43,394 nucleotides of DNA from a virus (IMGVR_UViG_3300015263_000944:1-43394), one strand, 5' to 3'. Shown: positions 1-30,140, counted from the stretch's first letter. Notes: generated from the letters alone by a model not told the origin. Translations and numbers: made by a program.

Positions 1-737
1 TTGTTGATGTCACGAATCACCACACCTTCATAGGTTGGGTCATCCACTTCTTGCTCACGCAGGAAGTCTTGAATCTCTTCCAGCGTGTTGAAGACGATGA
101 GGCCGGGCGTACCCATGATGCCACCAGCACACTTGCGATCACTGGCAAGCTCTCGGGCTTCCAACTCTTCCCAACTCAACTCACGATGTCCCTCGAAAGC
201 CGTGAGCAGATAGACCCTTGGTTCCTCGTATCGTCGAACGATCTTGTTCCACGGCGAGCAGAACTCACAGACATAGGTGAGGCTGCGATCCAAAAATTGG
301 TCTAGGTCCGACAACTCATTCACATGCAAGGCCCGGCAGATTGCCTCTTGCCATGTGAAGTCTTGGAACTGCATGTTGTCCAGTGCGAACGAACCACGAG
401 TATTGACCCGCCACTTCTCATAGAAGTAGATGATCGCAAGTGAACCGTCCTCTTTGTCTTGGACAATGAAGTTCGAGAAGTCGAAGTGGCCCATTTCATC
501 CTGCACTTCGCCCCAGTTGAAGAAGCGATTGAAGGACTTCGCCACTACCTCGAAGGTGTGTTTGTGCAAAACCAGCCCACGGCATTCACGCACAATGGGA
601 TGTGTCTTCGGCGATTCGATCTGGTCATAGTTCAAGATGACCAGAGGATCGTGAGGATGTTCTGCTATTTTGATGCCTAACTCGTTTTCCAGATCGGTCA
701 GGCTTTTTGTCTGTAGATATTGCTGTGTGTGGAGCAT
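1..737 (-). CDS. RNA ligase, Rnl1-like nucleotidyltransferase (partial; C-terminus beyond position 1)
   Basis: Absent from ORF track because there is no stop in the window. Hand translation of minus strand from ATG (plus-strand cat 735-737, SD AGGAGGG upstream) is open for 245 codons to position 1. Contains covalent-lysine motif I KEDGSL and a motif IV-like YEGVVIRD. Confidence 0.6.
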   Translation of the reverse strand, partial: MLHTQQYLQTKSLTDLENELGIKIAEHPHDPLVILNYDQIESPKTHPIVRECRGLVLHKHTFEVVAKSFNRFFNWGEVQDEMGHFDFSNFIVQDKEDGSLAIIYFYEKWRVNTRGSFALDNMQFQDFTWQEAICRALHVNELSDLDQFLDRSLTYVCEFCSPWNKIVRRYEEPRVYLLTAFEGHRELSWEELEARELASDRKCAGGIMGTPGLIVFNTLEEIQDFLREQEVDDPTYEGVVIRDIN

Positions 738-749
738 CCGTGCCCTCCT

Positions 750-775
750 GTCTTATGGCTTCTTGCCATTAAGAC
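750..775 (-). promoter_or_regulatory. near-perfect 10-11 bp stem-loop in 5' leader of the RNA ligase gene, immediately upstream of its SD
   Basis: gtcttatggc-ttctt-gccattaagac read in sequence; lies between intergenic motif copy 817-828 and ATG 737. Confidence 0.4.
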
Positions 776-825
776 AGTATAGAGGGCATCAAAGTTCGGT
801 GCAATGTCTTAAAAAACAGCGGGTG

Positions 826-1461
826 TTAGCCGGGCCGAGGCCGCTCATCGACGGGCAGCCATCCATCGTACCCATCGTCGGACGGCGGTGGCGGGGAGCA
901 ACTGCCACCAGAGCAGCCGCTCCCTACGCCGTTGACCGCTTCTCCACGCTGGATAGCTTCCCACTGTGCGTCGGAAATGCCGGGCGGCTTCACGTTGCCG
1001 TATCGCCGCAGGTAAGCCGAGCTATCGCCATCCGCACCATAGCCGCAGTTCCAGCAGATGTCGATCTGATGCTGCACTCGTGCGCCACATTGAGGACACT
1101 GGAACTTCCAGTTGGCCGGTGGCTTGAATGCAGTGTTTGGTTCAGCCATCCCCGTCTGTCGAACGATGTCCGAATCCGGGTTGAACGGATACGGCAAACT
1201 GTCGATGTAGGGGTCGCCGCCACGTCTCAGGTATGATTGGAACTGGATGTTCCGACCATAGAAGAGACGCATCAGAACATTGACGATCACCCAGCAGATT
1301 CCACCGAAGAATGCCACGGTGAGCACTGCCGAGATTGCCATTTCGAGAGGCGTCCAGAAACTCGTTTCGGTCGCCCAGTTCCATGCCGATGCGATCACCA
1401 TGTAGATCATAAAGATGATCACACATGCTCGCACGAAGACATTTGACTTAGACGTTCTCAT
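826..1461 (-). CDS. membrane protein with C-terminal zinc-ribbon (CPQCG...CWNCG)
   Basis: Track ORF 826..1530; I prefer internal ATG at 1461 (SD GGGAGGAAG 8 nt upstream, N-terminal hydrophobic segment, 14-nt overlap with upstream stop) over the 1530 start. Confidence 0.5.
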   Translation of the reverse strand: MRTSKSNVFVRACVIIFMIYMVIASAWNWATETSFWTPLEMAISAVLTVAFFGGICWVIVNVLMRLFYGRNIQFQSYLRRGGDPYIDSLPYPFNPDSDIVRQTGMAEPNTAFKPPANWKFQCPQCGARVQHQIDICWNCGYGADGDSSAYLRRYGNVKPPGISDAQWEAIQRGEAVNGVGSGCSGGSCSPPPPSDDGYDGWLPVDERPRPG

Positions 1462-1960
1462 CGGGTTCTTCCTCCCATATTTCCACCGGGGCTTGCCCAT
1501 CAATCTCGCCCAACTTCTCGATGACATCATCGGGTTCGTCGAGGTTCTTGATGGACATGACCGGTCTCTGGATCTCTTTGATCAGGCCCCAGTGAACCAC
1601 AGGCAGCACAAGGCTGTCCCGAGGACCGTTGCCGTACTGGTGAGTGCGGACATTCAAAACACTTGCTTGGTGCATCCAGCGGGCAACCTTGGTCAGTGTG
1701 ATGTCGTCGTCTCCATAAACTTCGAGTTCGATGGGGACGACATATCGCCGACACGGCTTGTCGCCATAGATGATTCGCATGATCTCTTGCATGTCTGCAC
1801 AAGCGGCAGTGGGTGTTGCGTACTTCAAGGCGTCGTTCTTCATCGCCTCTTCAGTAGACTCGACGAATTCCTCGCCAGTCCACACCTTGCCGTCTTCGAG
1901 ATTCTGAATCACATATCGCCGGGCAATCGGAGGCCCGACAGGATTTGCTCGTAGAATCAT
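1448..1960 (-). CDS. hypothetical protein
   Basis: Track ORF, ATG start, acidic C-terminus; no recognisable domain. Confidence 0.5.
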   Translation of the reverse strand: MILRANPVGPPIARRYVIQNLEDGKVWTGEEFVESTEEAMKNDALKYATPTAACADMQEIMRIIYGDKPCRRYVVPIELEVYGDDDITLTKVARWMHQASVLNVRTHQYGNGPRDSLVLPVVHWGLIKEIQRPVMSIKNLDEPDDVIEKLGEIDGQAPVEIWEEEPDENV

Positions 1961-1971
1961 GGTTGGTCCTC

Positions 1972-3093
1972 CTATGCGGCAAGCTCGTGCTCGGTGAGAC
2001 CACTCACCGGGGTTCGCACAACGAACCCCAGCAAGTGATCTACCACCTTGGATGCGTGGCTTGCGGCGTCAAAGATGTACTTGGGATCACTCTCCATGTG
2101 GCCGAGCCACGTCTTAACGTAAGACTGGCTTTGCTCCAACATCTGGTCGCTCATCGGCACGCCGATCTCCATGATAAGGAAACAGGCTCCGATCTCAGCG
2201 ATCAGTTCTTCAAAGGCATAGGGACGTTTTGAGTCCTTGATTGCCTTCTGCACGGACTTCACACGGCGAATGCCCCAATGGATCATCTCATGGAAGCGTG
2301 TTTCGTAGTAATCTGCCATCGAGGCGAAGGTTCGCTTCGGAGGCAGCATGATGGTGTCGGTTTGCTCCCGATAGATTGCTCGGTCGCCCCGATGGATCGT
2401 CTTCGCCCCAGTGTTGGACAGGAAGTCTTCCGCTGGCTTGAAGTCAGGTTCGGTGTTCTGAGTGCAAGGCAACGCTCGATACCGATCCAACTTGGCATCG
2501 ATGCCATTGGCGACATTGCTCGCAATGATCGAGACACGTCGCCGAGTCAGTTCGGCTGTCGCTCGTTTGCCCAAGTATCGCTCAGCGATCTCCAGCATCT
2601 CTGCGCCGCTGGTGCGACGGCTTTTGGTCTTGCGGCCCAACATCCGCTCGATGTTTGGCGATCTGCCATCCATCAATTCATCAACGCTGGGTGCCTTGAC
2701 CTGTGCGATGTTGTAGACGTAGAACTCACGCAGCAATGGCACCTTGATCGGTTCGCCCTTGCTGTTTCGGACCACCTTGCCGTTCTCGACCTTGTTGATG
2801 AAACGGAAGAGAGTGATTGCAGTGGGCAGTTCGTCATTGATGACCCCACCAACATTTCTCAACCACGTCAGATCGCTACCCCAGTGCTTCGACTCGAAGC
2901 CTTGCACAAGAGAGGACCACATCAGCAAGAGCGGGTTGATGCCGCTGTAGCGACGACCCGAGGCAAAGTTACATGGTGCTCCAGTATTGGAGTTGGTGCT
3001 CCATGCTCGTCGCCACGGGGGCAGCCCTTTGGCAAGGGCATCAACCATCAAAGCGGTAATGTTTTCACGGATTTGGTTTGCAGTTTTGTTCAT
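1972..3093 (-). CDS. ardC: ArdC-like antirestriction protein (N-terminal ssDNA-binding ArdC-N with PW..RRAW, C-terminal HExxH metallopeptidase-like motif HEMIHW)
   Basis: Track ORF; SD AAGGAGATA upstream of ATG 3093; HEMIHWG zincin-like motif and ArdC-N-like N-terminus recognised from memory; TAG stop. Confidence 0.65.
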   Translation of the reverse strand: MNKTANQIRENITALMVDALAKGLPPWRRAWSTNSNTGAPCNFASGRRYSGINPLLLMWSSLVQGFESKHWGSDLTWLRNVGGVINDELPTAITLFRFINKVENGKVVRNSKGEPIKVPLLREFYVYNIAQVKAPSVDELMDGRSPNIERMLGRKTKSRRTSGAEMLEIAERYLGKRATAELTRRRVSIIASNVANGIDAKLDRYRALPCTQNTEPDFKPAEDFLSNTGAKTIHRGDRAIYREQTDTIMLPPKRTFASMADYYETRFHEMIHWGIRRVKSVQKAIKDSKRPYAFEELIAEIGACFLIMEIGVPMSDQMLEQSQSYVKTWLGHMESDPKYIFDAASHASKVVDHLLGFVVRTPVSGLTEHELAA

Positions 3094-3112
3094 GGTGTAT
3101 CTCCTTGACCTA

Positions 3113-3125
3113 CAAGCGGGTGTTA
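3113..3125 (-). promoter_or_regulatory. conserved intergenic motif copy (minus strand TAACACCCGCTTG, here TTTAACACCCGCTTGT) 20 nt upstream of ardC-like ATG
   Basis: Exact repeat of motif seen at 10 junctions; directly preceded (minus sense) by hairpin 3128-3168. Confidence 0.5.
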
Positions 3126-3127
3126 AA

Positions 3128-3168
3128 CCAGCAGAGCCGCCCCGGTTTCCCGAGACGGCTCAAGCTGG
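3128..3168 (-). terminator. imperfect stem-loop downstream of RuvB-like gene stop
   Basis: ccagcagagccg ... cggctcaagctgg arms read in sequence; followed on minus strand by TTTAACA. Confidence 0.4.
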
Positions 3169-3175
3169 GGAGCAA

Positions 3176-4420
3176 CTACCGCTTGGACTCGAAGTATTCG
3201 GCTGTGACCTTGCGACCACGATGCTCGATGCCTCGCTTGTCCAGTTCGGCCAACCCTGCCTCGGTGATACAGCATCCTCTGCCGCTGACGGAAACCACAT
3301 AGGGTCCGCCGCCAGTGTAAGCCATTAGGAACGGCAGTTCGTACTTCTGCACCTGCTCGATGCGGCATTGAGCCACGCCGGGCAGTCGGGTTTCAGCGAT
3401 AGGACGCTGACCAAGAGCCGCCAAAATAGCAACCTGCTTCTTGGTGAAACCCCATTCGTCGAGGCCGATGTCCTCAGCCACCGCAGCACAAGCATCCTGC
3501 CATGTATGAGACGGCATGATGTCTCGACGCTGAATGACCTTGGTTGCGAAGTTGAGAGCTTCACGAGGCACACGACGATACTGGGCGACCATTTCGCAGA
3601 CATCTTCAGGCATAGTGCCAGTCAGATCGCCTACGGCATGGTACTCGTCCATCTTCATCTTGACGATTTGAGTGATCTCTTCCACGCCAGCGGCGTGCCA
3701 CTCGATGGCCGTACCCAAACGATTTTCCAGAGCATCGAACAACATGCCACGTTCAGTGGTCGCTGCCACCCAACAAATGTTGCGGCAGTTGACCTGCTGC
3801 TGTTCAGCATTGATGCCGGGGGCTTTGAGGGCCATGATCCCGTCATCACGCTCCATCGCATTCAAGAGTCCACCCTTCATCATCTTGCGAGGAATCAGAT
3901 GGGCTTCATCGAAGAACACGATGCACGGCGGCACGGTGTAATCGGTGTTGTCTTCGGGGTTCTTCCACTCGACAATAGGCTTGAAGGTGATGTCACCCTT
4001 GATCGGGCTGTAAAGGCTGTCCCCACCGAACGTGTGCTCGGCGAAAGCATCCTTGATTTGCTCGAACAAGTCCCATGTATTGGCGATGGATGCAGCTTGC
4101 ACGAAGACGAACGGAATACCGATGGTCTTGGCGAACTGTTTCACCACATAGGTCTTACCCTGACCGCTCCCGGCATAGATGCCGAAGTTGCAGCCACGCA
4201 GCGAACGGTTGAACCGCTTGAGGGCCGTGAAGGCGAAGTCACGCAGAATCCGCATGTTGCCTTCATTGGCGTCACTGACGATCACCTTGTTCAGAGGGCA
4301 GTTCTTGTTGTTGTTCGACAACGCCATCCGAATCTGTTCCTCGGTCGGAGCCGCAGGCAAGCTGGGATACTTCCGGTCGGAACTGGGATCGAAGAAAACC
4401 TTCATTAACTGTTGAGTCAT
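3176..4420 (-). CDS. RuvB-like AAA+ ATPase (Holliday-junction branch-migration helicase-like)
   Basis: Track ORF 3176..4468 starts at TTG directly abutting the motif; I use ATG 4420 (MTQQLMK, SD AAAGGG). Walker A GSGQGKT, Walker B FFDEAH, sensor-1 AATTERGMLFDALENRLG closely resembling RuvB ATTR.G.L...R.G, C-terminal winged-helix-like tail. Confidence 0.6.
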   Translation of the reverse strand: MTQQLMKVFFDPSSDRKYPSLPAAPTEEQIRMALSNNNKNCPLNKVIVSDANEGNMRILRDFAFTALKRFNRSLRGCNFGIYAGSGQGKTYVVKQFAKTIGIPFVFVQAASIANTWDLFEQIKDAFAEHTFGGDSLYSPIKGDITFKPIVEWKNPEDNTDYTVPPCIVFFDEAHLIPRKMMKGGLLNAMERDDGIMALKAPGINAEQQQVNCRNICWVAATTERGMLFDALENRLGTAIEWHAAGVEEITQIVKMKMDEYHAVGDLTGTMPEDVCEMVAQYRRVPREALNFATKVIQRRDIMPSHTWQDACAAVAEDIGLDEWGFTKKQVAILAALGQRPIAETRLPGVAQCRIEQVQKYELPFLMAYTGGGPYVVSVSGRGCCITEAGLAELDKRGIEHRGRKVTAEYFESKR

Positions 4421-4470
4421 GGGAAACGCCCTTTCTTGGAATGCGTCACAACTTTTGTACTGATGCAATC

Positions 4471-4483
4471 CAAGCGGGTGTTA
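4471..4483 (-). promoter_or_regulatory. conserved intergenic motif copy overlapping the TAA stop of the sigma-factor gene
   Basis: caagcgggtgtta; tta at 4481-4483 is the stop codon of ORF 4481..5380. Confidence 0.5.
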
Positions 4484-5380
4484 CGCAGCGTACTGGGCGT
4501 CCCGACCCACCAGATAATCCTTCATCTTGTCGCAAGCCCTTTTGAACGCAAGACATAGGGCGGCTTTGGTGTACAGATTTCCCGTGTTTGGATTGATCCG
4601 GGTCCGAGTCATTTCGGCTCGCAGCGAGGAATCGCCAACCATATAGCCGACGACCAGTTCCCGTTCGAGATCGGTCAGGCCAGCTTCGTCGATGGCGAGT
4701 TGAATTTCCTCTTCATCGATGGGGCCGTCGCCGAAATTGCCACCAGCCGAAGAGACTTCAGCAGCCAGCGGAATCGTCTTGTACATGGCATCGGCCACCT
4801 TATCGGCCTGTCGGTCGGAGATGTCCTCCCCTTCCTTCCGCAGCAATTGGATGGCTTCCTCGAAGCTGCATTGTCGCTGGCTCATGGTCCTCATCACCAT
4901 TCGGCGAATCGTTTTGATCGCACGTCCCACACCAGCACGTTCCTCTTGTTCACGGACGTAGCACGACATGGCACGTCGGAGGGCAGTATGCAAGAGCGTC
5001 GTAAAAGCGGTGCTGCCGTCATAGTGTTGGACGGCATTGACGAGGGCCACGCATCCCTCTTGGATGTAATCGTCTGGCTCGATCTCGGGATTGTCCCGGC
5101 GATTCGACTTCCAGAAAGAGTTCGCCATCCAGCAGACTTGGCGGATGTACGCACTGAGGAATGAACCCTCAAATCTCAGAAGTGCCTCCATCATCCGACG
5201 TGTCTCACCTCGCAGGGAAATCGCTCCCTGAAGAAAGTCGGTGCGAAGCCGCTTGATGTTGGCCTCGCCATACTTGGTGGCCGCAAACTTCTGCAAGCAG
5301 CCCACGACTTCGCAGAGTTCATTGTCTCGGTCGGCCCGCTCTGCATCGGTCCAATGCGTTGCTTTGATGGTGGTCGCCAT
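4481..5380 (-). CDS. sigma-70 family RNA polymerase sigma factor (regions 2 and 4 recognisable)
   Basis: Track ORF, ATG start. Region 2-like YIQEGCVALVNAVQHYDGSTAFTTLLHTALRRAM and region 4 HTH-like DLERELVVGYMVGDSSLRAEM...TKAALCLAFKRA. Confidence 0.6.
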   Translation of the reverse strand: MATTIKATHWTDAERADRDNELCEVVGCLQKFAATKYGEANIKRLRTDFLQGAISLRGETRRMMEALLRFEGSFLSAYIRQVCWMANSFWKSNRRDNPEIEPDDYIQEGCVALVNAVQHYDGSTAFTTLLHTALRRAMSCYVREQEERAGVGRAIKTIRRMVMRTMSQRQCSFEEAIQLLRKEGEDISDRQADKVADAMYKTIPLAAEVSSAGGNFGDGPIDEEEIQLAIDEAGLTDLERELVVGYMVGDSSLRAEMTRTRINPNTGNLYTKAALCLAFKRACDKMKDYLVGRDAQYAA

Positions 5381-5427
5381 GAATCGATCTCCCTGTGCTT
5401 GTGTTGTTGTGTAGGTTTCTGCGGTAC

Positions 5428-5439
5428 AAGCGGGTGTTC
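5428..5439 (-). promoter_or_regulatory. conserved intergenic motif copy upstream of sigma-factor gene; forms 5' arm of a hairpin with 5456-5465
   Basis: acaagcgggtgtt ... cccggcttgt complementary arms seen in sequence. Confidence 0.45.
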
Positions 5440-5471
5440 ATTGTGACAGACACGGCCCGGCTTGTAAAGGT

Positions 5472-5681
5472 TCATTCTCCAATTTGCGTTTCCCCAAAAT
5501 GGATCGTGTCCTGATGGGGGCTGAGAAAGTGCTTGCAAATGTGATCCGTCACAAACTCTATTGGGTCAACACCTTCTGGTGCCAACTTTGCCCAGTCCTT
5601 CACCCGTTGGGTGGTTTCGGAGTTCGTCTTCCGTCTCAGATGGAATCGAACATACCGACGAACTGCTTCTCGGGTGATCAT
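5472..5681 (-). CDS. hypothetical small basic protein (69 aa)
   Basis: Track ORF, ATG 5681 preceded 13 nt upstream by motif copy 5693-5705. Confidence 0.4.
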   Translation of the reverse strand: MITREAVRRYVRFHLRRKTNSETTQRVKDWAKLAPEGVDPIEFVTDHICKHFLSPHQDTIHFGETQIGE

Positions 5682-5692
5682 TGGTCTCTCTC

Positions 5693-5705
5693 CAAGCGGG
5701 TGTTA
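5693..5705 (-). promoter_or_regulatory. conserved intergenic motif copy; adjacent small hairpin agtcca-cttt-tggact 5705-5721 overlaps TAG stop of upstream gene
   Basis: Read directly. Confidence 0.45.
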
Positions 5706-5719
5706 GTCCAACTTTTGGA

Positions 5720-6910
5720 CTAGAAGCATCCCGCACATTGTTCACAGTCTTGGAACTCGAACTGATCGATGATGGGCAGCGAAGGCATTCCATCAATCAA
5801 CCCATTCGTTTGTATGAAATCGGCCATGCGCCCAGAACGATGCTTTGTGCGATGTCCCCACAATCCCTCAATCACTTGCAGTTGTTCTTGGCAGTTGTCT
5901 TCCATGCGAACAATGGCTCGCAGATAGTCACGACCATGTTCGGTTTGGGAATACAACTCCAACTCTTCTGCGGTGGTGGATGGACAGAACCAGCAAGCTG
6001 ATTTGACCGGCACCCCACCTTTCTTGATCCACTTGCGGCCAGTGTGATCGGACCAGCCGGGCAGACCTTCCTTCCGAATCTCTTCAAGGCATCGTTGACG
6101 ATCCCAGCCGAGTTCGATCAAAGGATACCAGTATTGGTACAACTGATCGTCGGTGATCTTGAATGAACGCCGTGAGTCATTCGGGCTTGCATCATAACCA
6201 ATCGCCACGATGCCTTGGTAGTGCTTGTCCCAGCACGTCTGGAATTCGTCAAGGCTCTCCCGGTATTTGTTCTGAGGCCCGATCTTCCACTTGGCACTGC
6301 ACTTTTTGCGTTTGAATGCCCATGAGGGGAGCGTGCGGTTGACGAGGCACTGTTGCTCCAGTGTGTGATACCAACCATTCTTCACTCGATCAGGAGAGGG
6401 CTTGTATCGCACAGTCACAACAGGCGGGAAACCCATCTGCTTGAGGTAGTCTTGAATGACTGGCTCGTAAGCATAGGTCTCTTTCTTCTCCGAGCCGGTG
6501 TCGGCGAAGGTGATGCAGGTCGGGCGGAACTGCGGACGCTTGTTCTTCTGTGAGTTGTAGAGCCGTGCCAGATGAATGAGCAGAGCGGTGCTGTCCACGC
6601 CCATCCCATAGCACACGGAGAAGGGACGGCCCATGCGGATGCGTTCCCACATGTTGTCGAAGGTGACAACCGGTGCAGGCTTGCACTCGGTCTCCATCTC
6701 CATGCTGAGTATGAGGCCACGAACTTCGGTGGCATTACCCAGCTTCATTTTCTTGGCCCAGTCAGATCGAGCTACATCCGCACACAGTTTGTTGAATGCG
6801 GCGAAGGGATCGGCGGCGATCTCTTCATCCATCTTCCATTCGATGTCGCTGATGACCCGCTGGAAGCGGGTGCGGTTGGGTTGTGCTTTCTCTTTGGTTT
6901 TGGTCGGCAT
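5720..6910 (-). CDS. PAPS reductase / DndC-like PP-loop ATP pyrophosphatase family protein with C-terminal Cys cluster
   Basis: Track ORF, ATG start with SD GGAGAA. PP-loop-like YGMGVDSTALLIHL (variant of SGGxDS) and C-terminal CWFCP...CEQCAGCF; TAG stop. Confidence 0.55.
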   Translation of the reverse strand: MPTKTKEKAQPNRTRFQRVISDIEWKMDEEIAADPFAAFNKLCADVARSDWAKKMKLGNATEVRGLILSMEMETECKPAPVVTFDNMWERIRMGRPFSVCYGMGVDSTALLIHLARLYNSQKNKRPQFRPTCITFADTGSEKKETYAYEPVIQDYLKQMGFPPVVTVRYKPSPDRVKNGWYHTLEQQCLVNRTLPSWAFKRKKCSAKWKIGPQNKYRESLDEFQTCWDKHYQGIVAIGYDASPNDSRRSFKITDDQLYQYWYPLIELGWDRQRCLEEIRKEGLPGWSDHTGRKWIKKGGVPVKSACWFCPSTTAEELELYSQTEHGRDYLRAIVRMEDNCQEQLQVIEGLWGHRTKHRSGRMADFIQTNGLIDGMPSLPIIDQFEFQDCEQCAGCF

Positions 6911-6941
6911 GTGGTTCTCCAGTTTTCCTGATGACGAACCA

Positions 6942-6953
6942 CAAGCGGGTGTT
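6942..6953 (-). promoter_or_regulatory. conserved intergenic motif copy sitting in the loop of inverted repeat tgacga(6932-6937)/tcgtca(6956-6961)
   Basis: Read directly; lies between TGA stop 6959 and ATG 6910. Confidence 0.45.
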
Positions 6954-6958
6954 GCTCG

Positions 6959-7177: not shown

Positions 7178-7202
7178 GGTGATTCTCCTCTCTGTTGATC
7201 CA

Positions 7203-7215
7203 CAAGCGGGTGTTA
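7203..7215 (-). promoter_or_regulatory. conserved intergenic motif copy (TTTAACACCCGCTTGT) immediately after terminator hairpin 7222-7251
   Basis: Read directly. Confidence 0.5.
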
Positions 7216-22835: not shown

Positions 22836-24587
22836 TTACGCAGAACCGAAACACCTTTCGACTGACATATTCTGCGGCTGAATTCCGTGCTTCTCCGCAA
22901 AATCCTGAAGGTCATAGCTGTGATTGATGCCTCGTTGCTGTCGAGAGATTCGCTTCACAGCTTCTCGGAAGTCATCAACGATGACACCGGTTCGAGTCTT
23001 GGCTGCCAGATCACGATGGAGGGCGATCATCTTGGCTTCTTCAGCCAATGCCGCCAGCATTGCACCATTCACTGCATCGCCAAGGGTGAAGTCGTGTTCG
23101 TTGTTGACCCGATACAAAGTGCGTGACTTGGAGAACAAGTCCGACACCGCAAGGGTTATGGTTCCCATCATCTGAGAAGCATCAGCAAACGGCAAAGTCT
23201 TTGTGTGAATTTGCAAAATGTCGATGGCTTCCATCTCGCCGGGGCGATCAACTTTGATGTGCTTCGAGATGCGTCCCGGTCGAGTGATGGCTGGATCGAG
23301 AATGTCTGCCCGGTTGGACATCAACACAACAATTGGATTGGCTTCCGTATCGCTCGGATCAACACCATCCATCTCGCCTAAAAACATAGGTACGATGGTG
23401 TCAGACACATCACTGCTGCGACGAGTTCCACGTTGTGGCATAATGGCATCAGCCTCATCGAAAGCAAGCAGAGCTTTGTATCCATGCTGACGGTAGTGAT
23501 GGCGAGCACGCCGAAACAGTTCTCGGATCTCAGCCTCGGTGTTTCCAACCCATTTGCTGAGGATTTCAGGTGATTTGACGAAGATGTATCCACTTTCAAT
23601 AGCCTCCTTGCCATGTGCGTTTGCGACTGCCCATGCCATAACTCTTGCGAGCAGTGTCTTGCCGCAACCGGGAGGGCCGAACAACAACACACCACGCAGG
23701 GCTTGTACGTCGTAGTATTTGAAAAGGTCTGGCTCAAGGAATGGCAACTCCAGTGCGTCTCGAAGTTGCTGCTTGGCTGTCTCCAAACCACCAACATCAT
23801 CCCATGTGGCAGTGAGTTCAGATGTGACCTTGTAACGATCACTGTTATCTCGTGCCAACTTCTCCATTACGCAGAACATCGTAGGATCACAGGCGACTCG
23901 ATCACCTTCTTCCAATGCAATGCCACGAGGGTTGTTGACCAGATGTTTCTCGCCTTTGAGTTCAACTTCGACGCTGCTCTCTCCAACGAATGCAACAACA
24001 CGACAAATCGGGCCAGCATGAAGGTCATAGCCACGAGACACAATGGCTTTCGTGTCAGGCTTCACTTTGACTGGCTCGCCCACTTGTAGGTCGAGATCAC
24101 CGAGACCTTGAACTTCCCACGGCTTGCCGTCGATGCTCACCACCGCAAAGGTGCCATCGGTTTTTTCAGACAGGCGCACTTGTGCTGCGGCCTTGCCCTC
24201 GACACCAATCGGGAATCGCACTTCTTCTTCATTGTGCAACTTCACGAGCACTGTCCCATCGTCATCAACGATGGGAGTCTCGTTCAAGCCACTGATGATT
24301 CGCCCGCCTTGCTGGTAATACGGCGAATCAGGATCAACGACAACAACTTCATCGTTGGTCTTGAAGCAGCGAGGGTCCACTGAATTGTGGACTTTGAGAA
24401 GCGTGCCGAAGCACAGAGGCTCGCCTAGCAGGCGTTTCAGCTTTTCGTGATGCTGAATGAGTTTGGCTGTGAGATCACGATTGATGTCACGCAACTCAGT
24501 AATGTCATCATGGAGCCGACGTGTCTGTCTGCCGACTCGACGCTGAACTTCGGCCTCGATGAATTGTTCTACGTTCTGATCTGTCAT
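22836..24587 (-). CDS. AAA+ ATPase with N-terminal coiled coil and OB-like region (proteasome-associated ARC/PAN-like architecture)
   Basis: Track ORF, ATG. Walker A LLFGPPGCGKTLLARV, Walker B LLAFDEADAI. Confidence 0.6.
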   Translation of the reverse strand: MTDQNVEQFIEAEVQRRVGRQTRRLHDDITELRDINRDLTAKLIQHHEKLKRLLGEPLCFGTLLKVHNSVDPRCFKTNDEVVVVDPDSPYYQQGGRIISGLNETPIVDDDGTVLVKLHNEEEVRFPIGVEGKAAAQVRLSEKTDGTFAVVSIDGKPWEVQGLGDLDLQVGEPVKVKPDTKAIVSRGYDLHAGPICRVVAFVGESSVEVELKGEKHLVNNPRGIALEEGDRVACDPTMFCVMEKLARDNSDRYKVTSELTATWDDVGGLETAKQQLRDALELPFLEPDLFKYYDVQALRGVLLFGPPGCGKTLLARVMAWAVANAHGKEAIESGYIFVKSPEILSKWVGNTEAEIRELFRRARHHYRQHGYKALLAFDEADAIMPQRGTRRSSDVSDTIVPMFLGEMDGVDPSDTEANPIVVLMSNRADILDPAITRPGRISKHIKVDRPGEMEAIDILQIHTKTLPFADASQMMGTITLAVSDLFSKSRTLYRVNNEHDFTLGDAVNGAMLAALAEEAKMIALHRDLAAKTRTGVIVDDFREAVKRISRQQRGINHSYDLQDFAEKHGIQPQNMSVERCFGSA

Positions 24588-24628
24588 CCTTGACGTGCTC
24601 CCCGGCTTCGATCCCTGAAGCCGTTTTC

Positions 24629-24910
24629 TTAAAACTCATCGGGAAGTTGTTCTTTAAGTTCTGCCAACCTCTTATTAGCAGATTCTATGGCTTCCAGACG
24701 TTCCGGCGTCTCATCTTCTGTGTAACAATTCACATACCATCTGGAATTGCTACGCCAGAACTTGCCGCCGAATCCCAGCATACCACAAAACCGGTATTCG
24801 GTGCAATGTCCTTCTGTCTCTGTAAATACGAAATTCTCCAGCCAGAAGTCGGTTGCGCCGCACTCCTGCTGGAGAATCTCATATATGCGTTTGGCTGTGT
24901 CTTCATTCAT
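24629..24910 (-). CDS. hypothetical protein
   Basis: Track ORF, ATG. Confidence 0.45.
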   Translation of the reverse strand: MNEDTAKRIYEILQQECGATDFWLENFVFTETEGHCTEYRFCGMLGFGGKFWRSNSRWYVNCYTEDETPERLEAIESANKRLAELKEQLPDEF

Positions 24911-24919
24911 GCCAACATC

Positions 24920-25705
24920 TTAGCTGGCGTTGCGAATCTCCACAACCCGAATCTGCTGGCCGTTGCAATCGAGATCCTTCGTTTCGATCACAAAATCCTC
25001 GGCAATGTCGAGGCCAGCGGTTCTGAGCGTGCGGCTGTAGAGCCGCATATCGCCGTTTCGCTCGATTTGCTGGGTCTGACCGGAAGGCCCACCCAAGGTA
25101 TCGACGACTTCATCGTACTTCTCTTCCTGCGTCAACAGGATGCGGTTGTTGGCCGTGTCCATGATGACCTGTACGGGGTCGTTGTGGACGAGACCGAGTT
25201 CCTTGACGAACTCCGTGCGGACCATGAGGCGATTGCGGTAGTCCGTGCTGAACGTGCCGTCCGTGTTTTGACCACCGCTGTCATTGCCGTTGTTGCTCGG
25301 CGCAGCCGGGGCGGCAGCAGCAGCGACGGCTGCGACGGGTTGCCCGCTGTGACTGGGCTGGGGACGACTCTGCGGCGTGGCACTTCCGCCCCGAGCCTGA
25401 TACTGGTTCGGATCGGCGGTTTCGGGATGATAGACGAAGGCCCAGCCGCCACCCGGCATGTTCATCTGCGTCTGTTGCCACTTCATGTCGTTGCCGTTGG
25501 GATCGGTGTGACCCCAATCGATGGCGTCCCGGAGGCACTGGATTTCGTGGATGCCGCCACGCACGTCCTTGTGACGCATCTGGACGTTCTCACGCTGGCG
25601 GGTCTCGATGGTCACATCGTAGCCGGTGAACATCCGGCCTTCATCGAGAAACTGCTTGACGGTAGCTTCGAGTTGTTGTTCGGTTGTCGGGTCGAGTTGG
25701 CACAT
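24920..25705 (-). CDS. hypothetical protein with AbrB/MazE-like C-terminal region, tentative
   Basis: Track ORF 24920..25759 (GTG) trimmed to ATG 25705 (MCQLDPT) behind leader CCCGATCAAGGAGACC. Confidence 0.4.
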   Translation of the reverse strand: MCQLDPTTEQQLEATVKQFLDEGRMFTGYDVTIETRQRENVQMRHKDVRGGIHEIQCLRDAIDWGHTDPNGNDMKWQQTQMNMPGGGWAFVYHPETADPNQYQARGGSATPQSRPQPSHSGQPVAAVAAAAAPAAPSNNGNDSGGQNTDGTFSTDYRNRLMVRTEFVKELGLVHNDPVQVIMDTANNRILLTQEEKYDEVVDTLGGPSGQTQQIERNGDMRLYSRTLRTAGLDIAEDFVIETKDLDCNGQQIRVVEIRNAS

Positions 25706-25888
25706 TGTCGTTGGTCTCCTTGATCGGGTTTCTTTGGTTATCGTGAAAACACACGCCACACTTGAATTGTATGGCAGAAAACTTACATGGTTGAGCCTTA
25801 GAAGTATTTCTTCTTCAGCACAATTCCCACCAGAGTCACAGAACTCAAGCAGAAGATTCCTGCTAGGAACTGCGACAAAGAAGAGGAT

Positions 25889-26557
25889 TCATTTGCCAGA
25901 AGTACCAAGGTCTGCATTGGGGGATTCCTCCGAGAAGGGTCGCTGACGAGAGTTGAGCCTTTCGTTCATCTCTGCGTCATAGGTTACGTCTCGTTGCATC
26001 CAACCGATGGGTACGCCCATCGGGAAAGGCTTCGCAAACACGAACAGATGAAACTGGTTGGCTGTATCGTGACAACGAGATTCCGCAGGATGCAACTGGA
26101 ACGCCTCGTTCTCTGGCCCCACCAGTTCGCTTTTGATTTGCTGAAAGTGCCGCCAATCAATGATCGCACGTTGGTCGATCCGCTTGATCGACAACCAGTG
26201 CATCTCTTGGCCCATCTGATTCACCCACCAATCGCCCTCCTTGCAACCTCGGATGTTGCGGATGACATAGACTTCATAGATGTTGTTTCGGTGGCCTGTC
26301 ACCGAATCGAAGTCGTAGGTGGTCTGCCAGTAGTTCAGCTTGAAGTCTGGCAGAGGGTATTCCTCGAACGGCGTCATCTTCGCCGCTGGTCCTTCAGGCA
26401 CATGGACCGGAACCTCAACGGGTCGTTCGACAACCACTACCGCAGCATTGTCAGGAAGCTGATCCAGAACATGCTGAGGAAGAGGCGGCACGTTGCCGCT
26501 ACTCATCGAGAGCGGCAGAGCGTGCTTGCGTCTCCTGTTGTTCTTCTTGTTTCCCAT
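25889..26557 (-). CDS. hypothetical protein
   Basis: Track ORF, ATG behind leader CCCGATCAAGGAGAACTC. Confidence 0.5.
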   Translation of the reverse strand: MGNKKNNRRRKHALPLSMSSGNVPPLPQHVLDQLPDNAAVVVVERPVEVPVHVPEGPAAKMTPFEEYPLPDFKLNYWQTTYDFDSVTGHRNNIYEVYVIRNIRGCKEGDWWVNQMGQEMHWLSIKRIDQRAIIDWRHFQQIKSELVGPENEAFQLHPAESRCHDTANQFHLFVFAKPFPMGVPIGWMQRDVTYDAEMNERLNSRQRPFSEESPNADLGTSGK

Positions 26558-26629
26558 GAGTTCTCCTTGATCGGGTGTACAAGGTCATTGTATGGCACAA
26601 ATCAAGGAGAGTTCACTCCAACTTTTGGA

Positions 26630-28294
26630 CTAGAAGCTGATCTCGGCGAGATACTTCATCTCGATTCGACCACGCTTGTAGATGATCCATTCGTTGTTCT
26701 GGAGTCCGCCGTAGACGCCCCACGATGCGGTGTGACCAGCCTTGCCGAACACGCAGTGGTGCGGATTGGGCGGCGAGGTGAAACCGTGAGCATCCTTGGC
26801 AACGTGAGGGTTGCCGCAGATCACATCGAAGGCGAACATGAAGGCGTGACGACCAACCACTTCACCGCCACCACCATAGTAGGAGCGACGACCGGGATTG
26901 CACGACGAGCAATACCCTGCGGACTTTTTCCAATCGTCCGCAAAATATGACCCCGGCCCGAACATGGCACCGGTGATGATGACGCCGGTAAGTTGGTTCG
27001 GGAATCGCAGGTTCTCTCGTACAATGCCCGGCACGTTGACTGAACGTGTGCCGTGGAACATCAGGGCCGTGTTGGTATCGTAGTACAACTTGCGTTCCTG
27101 TGCCGTCAGATCGGGACGCTCACGCCACATCTGGTGCAATGGACGCTCGTTGTTCCACTTCTTCGGCATCTCGCCCAATGTGGCTTCCTGAGCAGCACGC
27201 ATGATCTTGCTGTCGCCGTCACGCTCGATTTCCCACATGTTGTGGACCTTGAGCTTGCCGACGTGACCATGCTTGTTGCGAGTGGAGTTGATCCACCAAT
27301 CTTCCAACCACTTGCCTTTCTCGCTCTTGGGGTCGAGATAAGCGACCTTGGCGGGAATACCGGCCATCACGTCGGTCTCGTCTTCCTCGATGTTCATGTC
27401 AACGGCTTGCAATGCCGTCTCGAACGCATCGATGTCGAGCCGCCATGTGGAGATGTTGTCTTGGCTCAGAATCCAGTCCGCTTCGGCGATACCCTGCGGC
27501 TTCGCCTTTGGAATGATGCCGTACAGGTGATAGGTGAGTTGCTTCAACTCGGTGTCGCTGACCTGAGCGGCCACCTCATTGCCGACGATCTTGATCCGAG
27601 CCATCGCATCATCCAGCACATCACGCCCTTCATCGAGGGCAGCTTGGGCTGGCAACGTGACCTTGCCGCTTTTGCCGCCAGACATGACGGCGTTGGTGTA
27701 GCTCACAGCACCACCGATTAGATCGGTGAACAACTTGCGAGTCTGCGGATCGAGATTGGACTTCTTCTTGGTCGTCTTCTTCTTCGAGGTAGGAGCGGCA
27801 GCCGGGGCAGCATTTGCGCCCTTGGCATCTTCGTTGGCGAGATTTTCGCAGCACGGCAAACCGACCAGACGTGTCGCCGACAAACGGACGACATACAAGT
27901 CTTTGCCCGGCTTGGCGACGAAGCGATCCTTCGAGCCGACCTTCTGCCATTGCCCACGACTGGTGTTCTTCGACTTGAACTGTTTCTCGCAACAGTCCTG
28001 TGCGTCTTGTTTCGACGAACACTCATGGAACTGGAATGAGGGCTTGTTGGGGCGACCGTCAGGCCGTGTGCGACCCCACTCGAAGTAGGCATAGAATTTG
28101 TTGTTGATGGTCGATTGGACGACGGCCAAGTGGTAATACTTGTTCGAGTCCACATCTTCCTGCTTGAAGCAGCCGAGATCGCAGAGGCAGGCATCGCCCC
28201 ACTCAGTATCTCGGCTGACGACCGGGCCGAGACCTTTGAAGTCACTGACACTGTGGCCCGCTGGCAGCGTTTGTTTTGCAAGTTTGGTCGCCAT
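26630..28294 (-). CDS. poly(ADP-ribose) polymerase-like protein: WGR domain + PARP catalytic domain with H-Y-E triad
   Basis: Track ORF, ATG with SD GGAGGAT. WGR motif YFEWGRTRPDG; catalytic motifs LMFHGTRS, GAMFGPGSYFADDWKKSAGYC and LQNNEWIIYKRGRIEMKYLAEI match the PARP1 sequences I recall. Confidence 0.65.
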   Translation of the reverse strand: MATKLAKQTLPAGHSVSDFKGLGPVVSRDTEWGDACLCDLGCFKQEDVDSNKYYHLAVVQSTINNKFYAYFEWGRTRPDGRPNKPSFQFHECSSKQDAQDCCEKQFKSKNTSRGQWQKVGSKDRFVAKPGKDLYVVRLSATRLVGLPCCENLANEDAKGANAAPAAAPTSKKKTTKKKSNLDPQTRKLFTDLIGGAVSYTNAVMSGGKSGKVTLPAQAALDEGRDVLDDAMARIKIVGNEVAAQVSDTELKQLTYHLYGIIPKAKPQGIAEADWILSQDNISTWRLDIDAFETALQAVDMNIEEDETDVMAGIPAKVAYLDPKSEKGKWLEDWWINSTRNKHGHVGKLKVHNMWEIERDGDSKIMRAAQEATLGEMPKKWNNERPLHQMWRERPDLTAQERKLYYDTNTALMFHGTRSVNVPGIVRENLRFPNQLTGVIITGAMFGPGSYFADDWKKSAGYCSSCNPGRRSYYGGGGEVVGRHAFMFAFDVICGNPHVAKDAHGFTSPPNPHHCVFGKAGHTASWGVYGGLQNNEWIIYKRGRIEMKYLAEISF

Positions 28295-28331
28295 TGAAAA
28301 TCCTCCGGGTTTCGTTACTTGGTTATCGCCA

Positions 28332-28344
28332 CAAGCGGGTGTTA
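28332..28344 (-). promoter_or_regulatory. conserved intergenic motif copy 3 nt after TAA stop of gene 28348..28653 and 37 nt upstream of PARP-like ATG
   Basis: acaagcgggtgttag read directly; the only copy outside the 0.8-10.2 kb block. Confidence 0.5.
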
Positions 28345-28347
28345 GCT

Positions 28348-28653
28348 TTAGTCACCGGTTGCGCCGAACATCCATTCCAAAAATTGGACCAGACCTTCCA
28401 TGGCCTGCTGACGCTCTGGCGTCGTGTATCGATAGGTGAGCCGATAAATCGGCAAGCCTTCTGCACTGGTGTCGTGTCGCACGAGAAACCAATCGTTGCC
28501 ATTGTCGAGTTGCCATGAGTCACTACCCATGCTCGTTTTCTGGTATGGGATCGTGTCTCCCTCACGCTCTCTCGGCACTTGGCCGATCACCATCGCCACT
28601 CGTTGAGCGACGAATGCTTCAGGTGTCTTCTTGGCTGTGCGGAAGTAGATCAT
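28348..28653 (-). CDS. hypothetical protein
   Basis: Track ORF, ATG; ATGA overlap with the upstream stop. Confidence 0.45.
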   Translation of the reverse strand: MIYFRTAKKTPEAFVAQRVAMVIGQVPREREGDTIPYQKTSMGSDSWQLDNGNDWFLVRHDTSAEGLPIYRLTYRYTTPERQQAMEGLVQFLEWMFGATGD

Positions 28654-29228
28654 TCTCCGACTGTTCCTGTTACGACGAAGCGAGACAAAACAGGAACCAG
28701 TTCGGCCACCTGCTCTGGACCCAACTTCATCTTGGTTGTGAGGACAGTCCCTTCGGGATACTCAAAGGGCTGCCAACTCTTTCCGGGAATCATGATTTCT
28801 GGTTTTGGATCATCGGGGCCGACCAACAGTGTCTCTTCGTGGCTCTCGATTGAATAGCCACAACCATACAAGTCAACGGTTGTCAGCTTCTCGACCGAGC
28901 CACACTTGAGAAACGTCTCGAAGAGTTCAAGGATGATCGCCGCTTGCTCCTGATCCAAATGAACTCGTGTGTGAACGAGCACGCTGTGCCAGTGAGGGTT
29001 CTCTTTCTTCGCTTGGAACTCTTCGTGTGCTCGATGCCACTCGATCCACGCCTGTTGTTTCTTCGGCGAGACCTTGTTGGAACAGCGAGGATTGGCATCA
29101 TTGACACCGAACCATATTGCGGCGGCAGTAGCGAGACTTGAATCTTGGATGGAACATTTGTTGCCGTCGAGGTCAGGAAATTCACCAAGCCTGAATCCAC
29201 GACTCGTCTTGTCCATCTTCAAAGTCAT
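28650..29228 (-). CDS. hypothetical protein
   Basis: Track ORF 28650..29234 (TTG) trimmed to ATG 29228 with SD AGGAGA. Confidence 0.45.
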   Translation of the reverse strand: MTLKMDKTSRGFRLGEFPDLDGNKCSIQDSSLATAAAIWFGVNDANPRCSNKVSPKKQQAWIEWHRAHEEFQAKKENPHWHSVLVHTRVHLDQEQAAIILELFETFLKCGSVEKLTTVDLYGCGYSIESHEETLLVGPDDPKPEIMIPGKSWQPFEYPEGTVLTTKMKLGPEQVAELVPVLSRFVVTGTVGE

Positions 29229-29396
29229 CGCCAATCTCCTGTTTTGTATTGAAGACGCCGATGAATCACGGGGTTACATACCCGCCGTACCTTACCGTCC
29301 ACTCATTGAGCCCATGGTCTCGCAGAGTGCCGCTGCTCTTGTCGTGGGTACACTTATCGAGTTCAGGCCGAAGCCAGACTCATCGGCGTCACGACC

Positions 29397-29425
29397 ATTG
29401 TATGGCACGAAAACTTGGCTGTAAA
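29397..29425 (-). promoter_or_regulatory. sigma70-like promoter TTTACA-N17-TACAAT with about 160-nt leader
   Basis: Plus strand attgta 29397-29402 and tgtaaa 29420-29425. Confidence 0.45.
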
Positions 29426-29426
29426 G

Positions 29427-30140
29427 CTAATCTGCCAACTTGTTCGGAACCATTGGAGCAGTCATCCAGTTTTGAGAGGTCTGGACGTGGTTGGCTCGAA
29501 CGTATTTCGCACAATGGGTGCGAAATTGTTCATAGAGAAATCCCTCAGTGGCTCGTACAACATAGCCCTCTGCCTCACAAGGCAGGAAGTCACGGGGGAA
29601 CTCGGGGACCGGCACTTCGTGGGAATCTTCGGCCAGTGCAAAAGTTGGAAAGGTGCCATTGCACTCCAGACCCTCTACCCATCGCTCACGCACCGTCTTT
29701 TCGTCCCAAACTCCACGCCACAGCACAGGCACCGTTTGGAGGCCCAAGTCTTCGCAGATTGCTTCCACTTTGTCCCACGGCAGACAGAGATTGTCATTGT
29801 AGATGCCGTAAACGAAGAAGTACGAAGGAAGCTGGTCATAGAAGATAGAGTGGTAGGCGTACACGTTCTCGCCGCAGATGCGGAAGTTCTGCGGGATGCG
29901 GTAGGCGAATGTGGCAGCGAAGCTCTTCATCCATGATCGAGATGGATGGTGCTTGCTGTCAATTGAACGAGCGTGCGTGTGTCCATCGGGATACACGGTC
30001 GTACATTCCCCGTCGAGCTTCTCAGTCATCACGACTTCCCGACCATCAAATGCAGTGGTATCGCTCCACCACACATCGTCGGAAGAGTTCGACTGGCTCC
30101 AAGGGAGGTTCATCGTTCGTGGGTATTTGGTGCGTTCCAT
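29427..30140 (-). CDS. compact ATP-dependent RNA/DNA ligase-family nucleotidyltransferase (motif I KLDGE, motif IV EGYVVR)
   Basis: Track ORF, ATG. Confidence 0.5.
   Translation of the reverse strand: MERTKYPRTMNLPWSQSNSSDDVWWSDTTAFDGREVVMTEKLDGECTTVYPDGHTHARSIDSKHHPSRSWMKSFAATFAYRIPQNFRICGENVYAYHSIFYDQLPSYFFVYGIYNDNLCLPWDKVEAICEDLGLQTVPVLWRGVWDEKTVRERWVEGLECNGTFPTFALAEDSHEVPVPEFPRDFLPCEAEGYVVRATEGFLYEQFRTHCAKYVRANHVQTSQNWMTAPMVPNKLAD

Follow-up and report, generated by a model that had tools for sequence, protein, structure and literature searches.

What does a suppressor tRNA do in a phage that still ends genes of its own with the very codon this tRNA would read? The question is raised by a stretch of viral DNA, IMGVR_UViG_3300015263_000944:1-43394, whose full length of 43,394 nucleotides (nt) was analysed and is referred to here as the window. 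A preliminary description, made from the sequence alone, had interpreted positions 1-30140 as an RNA/tRNA repair and translation toolkit consisting of two RNA ligases, a PTH2-like peptidyl-tRNA hydrolase gene and a suppressor tRNA. Profile, fold and tRNA searches find all of these components in the sequence, and the interpretation as a toolkit is plausible, given that such a repertoire has already been described for jumbo phages (PMC7824862; phage CBB, PMC5259590); the span itself holds about 35 unrelated genes and constitutes no single feature. Two further proposals, namely that a polynucleotide kinase partner (Pnkp) lies just beyond position 1 and that the phage invests in the tRNA and in the PTH2-like gene independently of each other, find no support. 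As judged from the sequence, the reading frame of the Pth2-like gene is completed only by read-through of a UAG at codon 3, which ties this gene to the tRNA next to it.

We consider it probable that the window represents an accessory part of the genome of a huge (jumbo-class) phage and combines (a) an RNA end-joining set with (b) a suppressor-tRNA switch. Nearly all genes of the window, and every item named in the preliminary description, are located on the minus strand (Table 1).

An Amber Codon at the Third Position of Two Neighbouring Genes

On the minus strand, the Pth2-like gene opens with AGGAGAAGGAAACC ATG TTG TAG AAC, after which the frame runs on to position 16409. Between the TAG and the first strand of the domain, β-1 (YVYIFVR), there is no ATG, GTG or TTG; the first such codon, a GTG, comes at 16702, already within the domain, and it is at a GTG within the domain that gene callers begin the homolog P0241 (97 amino acids, aa). 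Three relatives with 60-80% identity (L003, L004 and L005) carry a Shine-Dalgarno sequence (SD), an ATG, one to five codons and a TAG ahead of YVYIFVR, the leaders of the three close relatives being M-H-L-P-H-T-stop, M-R-P-D-T-stop and M-T-stop. Two close homologs are free of the stop (P0244 and P0258) and have Q at the position of the window TAG, which is why the residue inserted upon read-through would probably be Gln.

That the protein adopts the Pth2 fold is supported by several lines of evidence. The part following the TAG, taken alone, scores 17.1 bits against PF01981, where the Pfam cut-off is 23; some homologs clear this threshold (e.g., XacN1 ORF364 with 25.3 bits), and the family profile matches the solved peptidyl-tRNA hydrolase chain 24bt_A (E=7e-7). 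The AlphaFold model has a predicted local distance difference test score (pLDDT) of 90.6, and its top 15 Foldseek matches are all Pth2-family structures, with template modelling (TM) scores of 0.6-0.7. Within the family, the motifs Q-x-x-H-A and T-A-x-A are invariant; together with the fold, this helix and this strand are what the protein shares with archaeal and eukaryal Pth2 (PF01981; MJ0051, AF2095, human Bit1), from which it differs in its sub-threshold Pfam score and, in some phages, in an HD-like N-terminal fusion. Profile and model, thus, bear out the Pth2 fold, the hydrolase activity itself being a prediction.

The second gene of this kind encodes a cupin-like protein (phrog_4786, 120 bits) and lies on the far side of the tRNA cluster, where it begins with ATG TCG TAG AAC. 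The early TAG of the cupin gene is also found in L004, L005, L015, L104, L105 and L106, amounting to seven loci with the window, and is absent from distant actinophage-type cupin homologs. The cupin gene of L015 additionally contains, at about 255-265 of the minus strand, an in-frame TGA where homologs have E or G, which hints at opal suppression. In the window, the Pth2-like and the cupin genes are the only ones with an early in-frame TAG; in both it is codon 3, and both flank the tRNA cluster. The cluster includes a tRNA with a canonical cloverleaf and the anticodon CUA, whose nearest phage tRNAs are annotated as tRNA-Trp or tRNA-TERM; it is predicted to decode UAG, and the support for this is indirect, coming from the conserved cognate in-frame stops nearby.

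The same observations may also be read as recoding of the whole phage, with both TAGs being ordinary sense codons (code 15, TAG = Gln). The tRNA(CUA) and the Q at the corresponding position of homologs would fit, and several of the related loci belong to AT-rich phages of a kind known to be recoded. Against this, TAG ends 9 of the 50 window genes, including that of ligase 2, whose length matches that of its homologs, and the in-frame TAGs are confined to codon 3 of two genes flanking the tRNA. Moreover, treating TAG as sense neither merges nor lengthens real genes; in general, no sensible gain in open reading frame (ORF) length was obtained across the window when TAG, TGA or TAA was read as sense. 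Since TAG is an ordinary stop for 9/50 genes, the window region is not recoded throughout; the marks of code 15, many in-frame TAGs and no use of TAG as terminator, are absent from the window. We, therefore, regard whole-phage recoding as quite unlikely.

Early Stops and Matching tRNAs across Huge Phages

A scan of viral contigs with the alignment of the Pth2-like family returned 80 loci, many of them from contigs of 100-530 kb, and the counts given below refer to 81 non-redundant huge-phage loci, for each of which 4 kb were fetched on either side. A gene was scored as gated if an SD and an ATG are followed by a few codons and an in-frame stop, and if no start codon preserves strand β-1. With GTG and TTG allowed as possible starts, 43/81 loci are gated (37 with TAG, 5 with TGA, 1 with TAA); if ATG is taken as the sole alternative start, the number is 45, and in 23 of these the stop is codon 3. 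Overall, the position of the stop ranges from codon 2 to codon 9.

A suppressor tRNA is present in the fetched flanks of 54 of the 81 loci, and its anticodon follows the type of the stop: of the TAG loci, 26 have CUA and none has UCA alone, and of the TGA loci, four have UCA and none has CUA (Fisher's exact test, p ~4e-5). In addition, the base directly after the stop is biased, with A in 26, G in 15, C in 4 and T in 0 cases, at a T background of 27.5% in these loci. When the pattern of SD, ATG, short leader, stop and long ORF is counted over the 1.07 Mb of the loci, it is found 37 times with TAG, 16 times with TGA and 10 times with TAA, the TAG cases coming mostly from Pth2-like or cupin genes.

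The gate is not restricted to metagenomic contigs. By searching GenBank phages with tblastn and inspecting the DNA of the hits, it was detected in Cronobacter phage GAP32 and Pectobacterium phage CBB (both M-A-Q-stop), Ralstonia phage RsoM2USA (M-L-stop), Acinetobacter phage ME3 (M-T-stop) and Salmonella phage Arash (M-L-stop), as well as in one uncultured phage of 595 kb; in RaK2, the Pth2-like gene starts normally. A tRNA(CUA) is located 0.4-4 kb from the gated gene in ME3, CBB and Arash. The case of Arash (L127) illustrates how easily both partners are overlooked: its tRNA at 5310-5384 is annotated as tRNA-Phe and is called CUA by ARAGORN, and at a distance of 1.3 kb only a 50-aa fragment of the gated gene is annotated, as "peptidyl-tRNA hydrolase". 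Truncated or missed annotation is common to GAP32_397, CBB_406 and Arash gp84c, and the RsoM2USA copy is unannotated. At the DNA level, no part of the window apart from the tRNA(CUA) matched cultured relatives.

In three Xanthomonas/Stenotrophomonas jumbo phages, XacN1 (L100 1964-2803), RAS14 (L123 3443-4303) and Xoo-sp13 (L125 3467-4309), the Pth2-like domain follows a fused N-terminal domain of about 170 aa that weakly resembles HD domains, and the fused gene begins with ATG-AAG(-AAG)-TAG. This arrangement is unambiguous in RAS14 only, since XacN1 and Xoo-sp13 have an in-frame ATG four codons past the TAG.

These two ambiguous genes also bear on the question of whether the stops have any function at all, as they could stem from pseudogenes, sequencing errors or misplaced starts, with translation beginning past the stop or never. 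Gene callers do place the starts downstream (P0241, GAP32_397 and CBB_406). However, more than 40 independent lineages, 28-80% identical, have this layout, and they include cultured phages with finished genomes; it is the upstream ATG that the SD precedes, and downstream starts would remove strand β-1. The type of stop also agrees with the neighbouring anticodon, T is avoided after the stop, and we consider this explanation very improbable.

The Suppressor tRNA as a Putative Activator of Its Neighbours

The best-supported explanation is that the suppressor tRNA acts as a translational activator of its two neighbours. The phage tRNA(CUA) lies between the Pth2-fold gene and the cupin gene, each of which has a single sense codon between its ATG and the UAG. 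As long as no charged suppressor is available, release factor 1 would stop translation after a dipeptide; once it is present, the UAG would be decoded and the full protein made, so that the production of both proteins would require suppression and scale with its activity. As to the role of the Pth2-like protein, our preferred guess is that it would clear peptidyl- or aminoacyl-tRNA by-products of suppression or feed back on the suppressor. In the lambda bar minigenes, which are ORFs of two codons, toxicity depends on peptidyl-tRNA hydrolase. As a possible parallel, they echo the ATG-NNN-stop leader ahead of the Pth2-like gene, with the difference that bar is not fused in frame to a gene.

Tentatively, and with rather less than even confidence, we propose a more specific version, according to which the suppressor tRNA is the dedicated activator of a tiny regulon, comprising the Pth2-fold gene and, in this lineage, the cupin gene, and the Pth2-like enzyme, by acting on the suppressor or its peptidyl-tRNA, closes a loop that sets the level of read-through.

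Several observations weigh against an activator role of the suppressor tRNA. The start is an ordinary one in about 37 homologs, of which 23 nevertheless lie beside a suppressor tRNA, and because of these ordinary starts the gate has to be regarded as frequent, not obligatory. Eleven TAG-gated loci have no tRNA(CUA) within 4 kb on each side, where the tRNA could sit elsewhere in the genome. Initiation at a non-canonical codon past the stop would be compatible with the sequence. Two stretches of the solved Pth2 sequence used in the alignment, GK and DAGxT, are absent from the Pth2-like family, and because of this, hydrolase activity of the protein is not assured. Finally, with regard to the remaining parts of the proposed toolkit, the ligases are situated 13-15 kb from the tRNA cluster, with no mechanistic tie to the suppressor switch being apparent, and no polynucleotide kinase or phosphatase was found with Pfam among the approximately 55 proteins of the window.

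Table 1. Features of the window and their coordinates.
Feature	Position	Strand	Evidence and remarks
Pth2-fold gene with amber gate	16409..16783	-	SD (AGGAGAAGGA); ATG 16781-16783, TTG, TAG 16775-16777; 121 sense codons
Cupin-like gene (phrog "cysteine dioxygenase" family) with amber gate	15108..15521	-	ATG 15519-15521, TCG, TAG 15513-15515
Amber suppressor tRNA, anticodon CUA	15921..15992	-	ARAGORN; Rfam RF00005, 67.7 bits
tRNA-Val(GAC) with 64-nt structured insert	16041..16179	-	ARAGORN, introns allowed; insert 16084-16147, between nucleotides 31/32
tRNA-like mini element	16184..16265	-	folds; 6-bp acceptor-like stem, small hairpin, 10-nt single strand, T-arm
HNH endonuclease downstream of tRNA cluster	13255..13926	-	PF01844
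Ligase 1, T4 Rnl1-family RNA ligase, N-terminal 245 of 374 aa	1..737	-	PF09511, 69 bits; ATG at 737
Ligase 2, 237-aa stand-alone RNA-ligase nucleotidyltransferase domain	29427..30140	-	PF09414, 107 bits; stop TAG
Candidate 2H phosphoesterase, possible 2',3'-cyclic phosphate healing enzyme	19779..20405	-	PF22547 2H-SAK, E=0.0017, below threshold
NUDIX hydrolase, NudE-like, adjoining 2H gene	18819..19454	-	PF00293, 37 bits; syntenic in relatives
ArdC-like antirestriction/metallopeptidase protein	1972-3093	-	
Sigma-70 region-2 protein	4481-5380	-	
PAPS-reductase-like protein	5720-6910	-	
ParB-like protein	7282-8703	-	
AAA ATPase, 583 aa	22836-24587	-	nearest proteasome ATPase Mpa/ARC (TIGR03689, 267 bits)
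WGR + PARP catalytic domain protein, 554 aa	26630-28294	-	
Nucleoside 2-deoxyribosyltransferase-like protein, 391 aa, and adjoining HD protein, 200 aa	34053-35907	-	
Radical-SAM/SPASM cluster	36011-41559		

RNA Ligases and Healing Enzymes

The ligase that opens the window had been described as Rnl1-like on the basis of the motifs KEDGSL and EGVVIRD, and this assignment holds: its score against PF09511 (RNA_lig_T4_1) compares with a cut-off of 28.3 bits, its family matches the T4 Rnl1 structures 2c5u and 5tt6 (E ~1e-7), and the two motifs align to T4 K99-EDG (motif I) and T4 EGYVA (motif IV), respectively. The 3' end of the gene lies past position 1. The full architecture of about 374 aa with a C-terminal domain is, thus, outside the window and is supported through P0121, a full-length protein of 374 aa from another sample that is 99% identical to ligase 1 and matches phrog_562 (T4 gp63/RnlA) with 170 bits over about positions 7-356 of 377. 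Against TIGR02308, ligase 1 reaches 48.3 bits at a cut-off of 242, which makes it a member of the T4 Rnl1 family and no equivalog.

The second, compact ligase is likewise confirmed, its score against PF09414 comparing with a cut-off of 27 bits. Motifs I, III, IV and V are intact, with K41, D43, G44, E91, E191/G192 and K212 invariant in 35 homologs. The AlphaFold model (pLDDT 90.4) finds its best folds in NgrRnl, T4 Rnl2, the Trl1 ligase domain (Trl1-LIG) and archaeal Rnl3 (E ~1e-5, TM 0.4-0.5); DNA ligases come further down the list, capping enzymes do not reach significance, and no solved structure was matched when the PDB was searched with a sequence profile. The phrog_24030 profile has 342 positions, of which ligase 2 covers 132-340, and because this is only the catalytic half of the profile, we regard it as a bare nucleotidyltransferase domain and not as an Rnl2 or Rnl5 proper; the appended domain for nick sealing, which is C-terminal in Rnl2 and N-terminal in Rnl5, is absent. 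Taken together, profile and fold searches place both ligases among the ATP-dependent RNA ligases and not in the DNA-ligase or mRNA-capping families, which the preliminary description had named as the alternative.

Two further genes of the window may be involved in the processing of RNA ends. In the 2H candidate, both HxT/S motifs (EHITVIR and PLHLSFGH) are kept in five homologs, among them those of L003, L004, L005 and L048, and the neighbouring gene encodes the NUDIX hydrolase. Past position 1, where the Pnkp partner had been suspected, a near-identical contig has a single called gene, of 165 aa and on the opposite strand, before the contig ends. Within 10 kb downstream of ligase 1 in the syntenic contig L122 (128.6 kb), CsrA, DUF3228 and small unknown proteins are encoded and no kinase or phosphatase match was obtained; the neighbours of the ligase-1 homolog in L002 are thymidylate synthase and dihydrofolate reductase, with no Pnkp-type kinase or phosphatase among them.

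The ligases, the 2H esterase and the NUDIX hydrolase fit the RNA-repair repertoire of jumbo phages (PMC7824862), and a role for them, in line with the preliminary description, would be counter-defence in the manner of T4, where ligases and healing enzymes reseal host or phage tRNAs cut by anticodon nucleases, with the tRNAs and the Pth2-like protein serving as independent back-ups. Ligase 1 being a full-length homolog of T4 RnlA speaks for such a role, as do the presence of a 2H esterase and a NUDIX hydrolase and the fact that an equal repertoire has been described as RNA repair in jumbo phages (PMC7824862). However, the Pnkp-type enzyme is missing from the window as well as from the regions inspected in L002 and L122, and the conserved stops and their match to the anticodon are left unexplained. 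This explanation is compatible with the one we favour for module (a) and competes with it only over the purpose of the tRNA and the Pth2-like gene; in our judgement, its probability falls not far short of even.

The tRNA Cluster and Its Inserts

The preliminary description had spoken of tRNA genes in the plural. Under standard settings, ARAGORN reports only the tRNA(CUA); a second one, tRNA-Val, appears once introns are allowed, as it is interrupted by a structured insert. Further insert-bearing copies are present in L004 (11057-11200), L005 (7128-7268), L015 (759-895, minus strand) and L011 (334-487), the latter two being the true homologs, and L018 a further candidate, from an insert-pattern search of viral and metagenome collections, in which most matches were false positives from tandem tRNA-Arg genes. 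The inserts measure 61-79 nt, are structured and conserved, and occupy the same site between nucleotides 31/32. In the five homologs, the cloverleaf is kept with compensatory changes, and the anticodons GAC, UAC, UAC, AAC and UAC are found within the 7 nt past the insert. In the hairpin of the insert, five of six pairs covary and close the conserved loop AAAGGGACGCCAGA; the loop octamer GGGACGCC is invariant among the tRNA-Val homologs. This octamer occurs six times in the window (at 4496, 7678, 16106, 25523, 31410 and 35121), compared with 1.2 expected, and none of 100 shuffles reached six. When searched with BLAST, the spliced tRNA-Val matches phage tRNAs of many specificities, which is uninformative on its identity. 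The closest viral relative has a different insert of 83 nt at the same tRNA site.

Known intron classes do not account for these inserts. A bulge-helix-bulge intron was rejected upon inspection of the folds, in which the insert helix stacks straight on the anticodon stem without 3-nt bulges, and a group I intron was rejected as well, 64 nt being too short for a core of at least about 200 nt; a comparison with Rfam intron and ribozyme families yielded no match at E up to 10.

Rnl1-class ligases and 2H cyclic phosphodiesterases are the catalytic classes united in fungal Trl1. The window could, hence, encode a splicing system that excises the insert from tRNA-Val, and from similar tRNAs of relatives, by a cut at either end, after which the 2H esterase would heal the two halves and the Rnl1-type ligase would join them, in the manner of Trl1. 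The insert is conserved and structured, a Val anticodon is kept in all five homologs, and insert-bearing tRNAs coexist with two RNA ligases in CBB and in the 693-kb contig. Nevertheless, neither an endonuclease nor a kinase was identified, the junctions show no bulge-helix-bulge, and removal of the insert is a presumption only; the spliced loop of the window tRNA would have A33 instead of the near-universal U33, and ligases of this type are found in many jumbo phages. A dedicated splicing system, therefore, appears unlikely to us. In a less specific sense, the RNA ligases, together with the 2H esterase and the NUDIX hydrolase, may, besides or instead of repair, mature tRNAs with protein-dependent mini-introns in the same genomes.

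The relatives show that tRNAs with inserts come in several forms. Besides its tRNA-Val, the 693-kb relative L004 carries an opal suppressor tRNA(UCA) at 10490-10563, a tRNA(UAU) at 10723-10869 (Rfam tRNA, 39.7 bits), in which an insert of 83 nt interrupts the T-stem, and, at 10877-11045, a tRNA-like gene whose insert is longer; the inserts of the latter two have GGCCGTAGnGGTTGCAAACnTGAAAGCT in common. In CBB (L103), five tRNAs are 110-122 nt long (10535-10655, 24359-24468, 29710-29823, 31411-31532 and 36648-36766); four of them share an insert motif, a GATTCTTG hairpin followed by ACAGCAACCATAC. These long tRNAs are not discussed in the CBB paper.

Directly upstream of the tRNAs, a tRNA-like mini element of 58-82 nt is found, which recurs in L004 (about 10427-10484) and L015 (about 975-1040, minus strand); the copy of the window has an extra hairpin of 25 nt in its loop, and its only Rfam match is a weak and partial one to YrlA. 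A perfect palindrome of 36 nt (TTTAGTTGCGACTTTCAATTGAAAGTCGCAACTAAA) is situated between the two tRNAs at 15997-16032, and similar GAAAGTCGCAACT hairpins lie past the Pth2-like gene in L004 and L015. Between the stop codon of the Pth2-like gene and the mini element (16276-16396), CCGGACAT is repeated four times, three copies being in tandem with a period of 10 nt, and these repeats may constitute a protein-binding or promoter array. The position of the HNH endonuclease gene downstream of the cluster is kept in L003 and L004, and in CBB an HNH gene is likewise found at the end of a tRNA run.

Genomic Setting and Other Genes of the Window

Relatives of the window were found among IMG/VR viral contigs of 70-530 kb, and the order AAA ATPase, NUDIX, Pth2-like gene, tRNAs, HNH, ParB-like gene, AAA, ArdC, ligase 1 is kept in them; from the length of these contigs and the conserved order it follows that the window derives from a huge phage. 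Homologs of ligase 1 and ligase 2 number in the hundreds to thousands and are repeatedly co-located on contigs of 128,658, 155,661, 219,283, 618,287 and 693,098 bp, and on some of them, e.g., those of 128,658 and 693,098 bp, the Pth2-like protein has a homolog as well. Since the homologs share long contigs with kept gene order, the grouping of ligases, Pth2-like gene and tRNAs is not due to chance. The ligase pair alone is an ordinary feature of jumbo phages. The label Fuerstiella on one ligase homolog gives no more than a hint at the host.

Upstream of ligase 1, the block from the ArdC-like to the ParB-like protein also includes the sigma-70 region-2 and the PAPS-reductase-like proteins, and its order is syntenic in L122. 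The protein with WGR and PARP catalytic domains and the AAA ATPase closest to Mpa/ARC are both unusual in phages. Next to the protein with the nucleoside 2-deoxyribosyltransferase-like domain, the 200-aa HD protein is related to the hydrolase domain of RelA/SpoT and possibly acts against nucleotide signalling. Three radical-SAM/SPASM proteins, a carbamoyltransferase and a sulfotransferase are clustered at the far end of the window and may form a peptide- or sugar-modification pathway.

Relation to Known Systems and Implications

With the T4 Rnl1 (gp63)/Pnkp pathway, the window has in common a ligase of the same length, the KEDGSL nucleophile and motif IV, to which P0121 adds motif V and the C-terminal region; in contrast, the ligase is a distant homolog, Pnkp was not found and a 2H esterase is present in place of the T4 phosphatase. 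T4 Rnl2 and Rnl5 (Deinococcus DraRnl, Naegleria NgrRnl) resemble ligase 2 in the nucleotidyltransferase fold and in motifs I, III, IV and V, but ligase 2 lacks the N-terminal module of Rnl5 and the C-terminal domain of Rnl2, and its TM scores to any solved ligase are those given above. A ligase of the DRB0094 family is reported to be enriched in recoded phages (PMC10879173). Closest in overall content are the RNA-repair systems of jumbo phages (Iyer et al. 2021, PMC7824862; CBB, PMC5259590), which include an Rnl1-type and a second RNA ligase, 2H, NUDIX, Pth2, many tRNAs and a suppressor tRNA. In these descriptions, however, the parts are treated as parallel, and no stop codon coupling the tRNA to the Pth2-like gene is noted. 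Conserved tRNA introns have been called "enigmatic" in the Lak megaphages (PMC6784885); the inserts described here are likewise conserved and unrelated in sequence.

Phage suppressor tRNAs reading in-frame stops are known from recoded phages (Lak, PMC6784885; Borges et al., preprint 10.1101/2021.08.26.457843; crAss-like phages, PMC9523058), for which stop recoding has been proposed to time gene expression. There, many stops are scattered over late genes, whereas here a single stop per gene is found at codons 2-9 of two small, tRNA-adjacent genes, and TAG still serves as a terminator. A coupling of suppressor tRNA and Pth2-like gene via an early cognate stop is mentioned neither in the Borges preprint nor in jumbo-phage surveys and phage genome papers, subscription journals being outside this search. 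As far as the sequences tell, what is new is that a Pth2-like gene and its neighbour begin with a stop that would be readable only by the adjacent tRNA, and that dozens of huge phages, cultured ones among them, share this design.

Papers on cultured jumbo phages have found or named no specific suppressor target: two tRNA(CUA) genes were reported for XacN1 with no target genes identifiable (PMC5852040), and those on RsoM2USA (PMC8504454) and Atu_ph07 (PMC6102473) only remark that the stop codon is abundant. The pattern described here names concrete targets beside the tRNA and, if true, would account for the "orphan" suppressor tRNAs of non-recoded jumbo phages. Gated phages grow on Pectobacterium, Cronobacter, Acinetobacter, Ralstonia and Salmonella, so that the proposal is directly testable, and the arrangement would offer a natural design for tRNA-dependent expression switches. 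Suppression of this kind would operate without recoding the rest of the genome; it could be a stepping stone to full stop-codon recoding and, thus, bears on how alternative genetic codes begin to evolve in phages.

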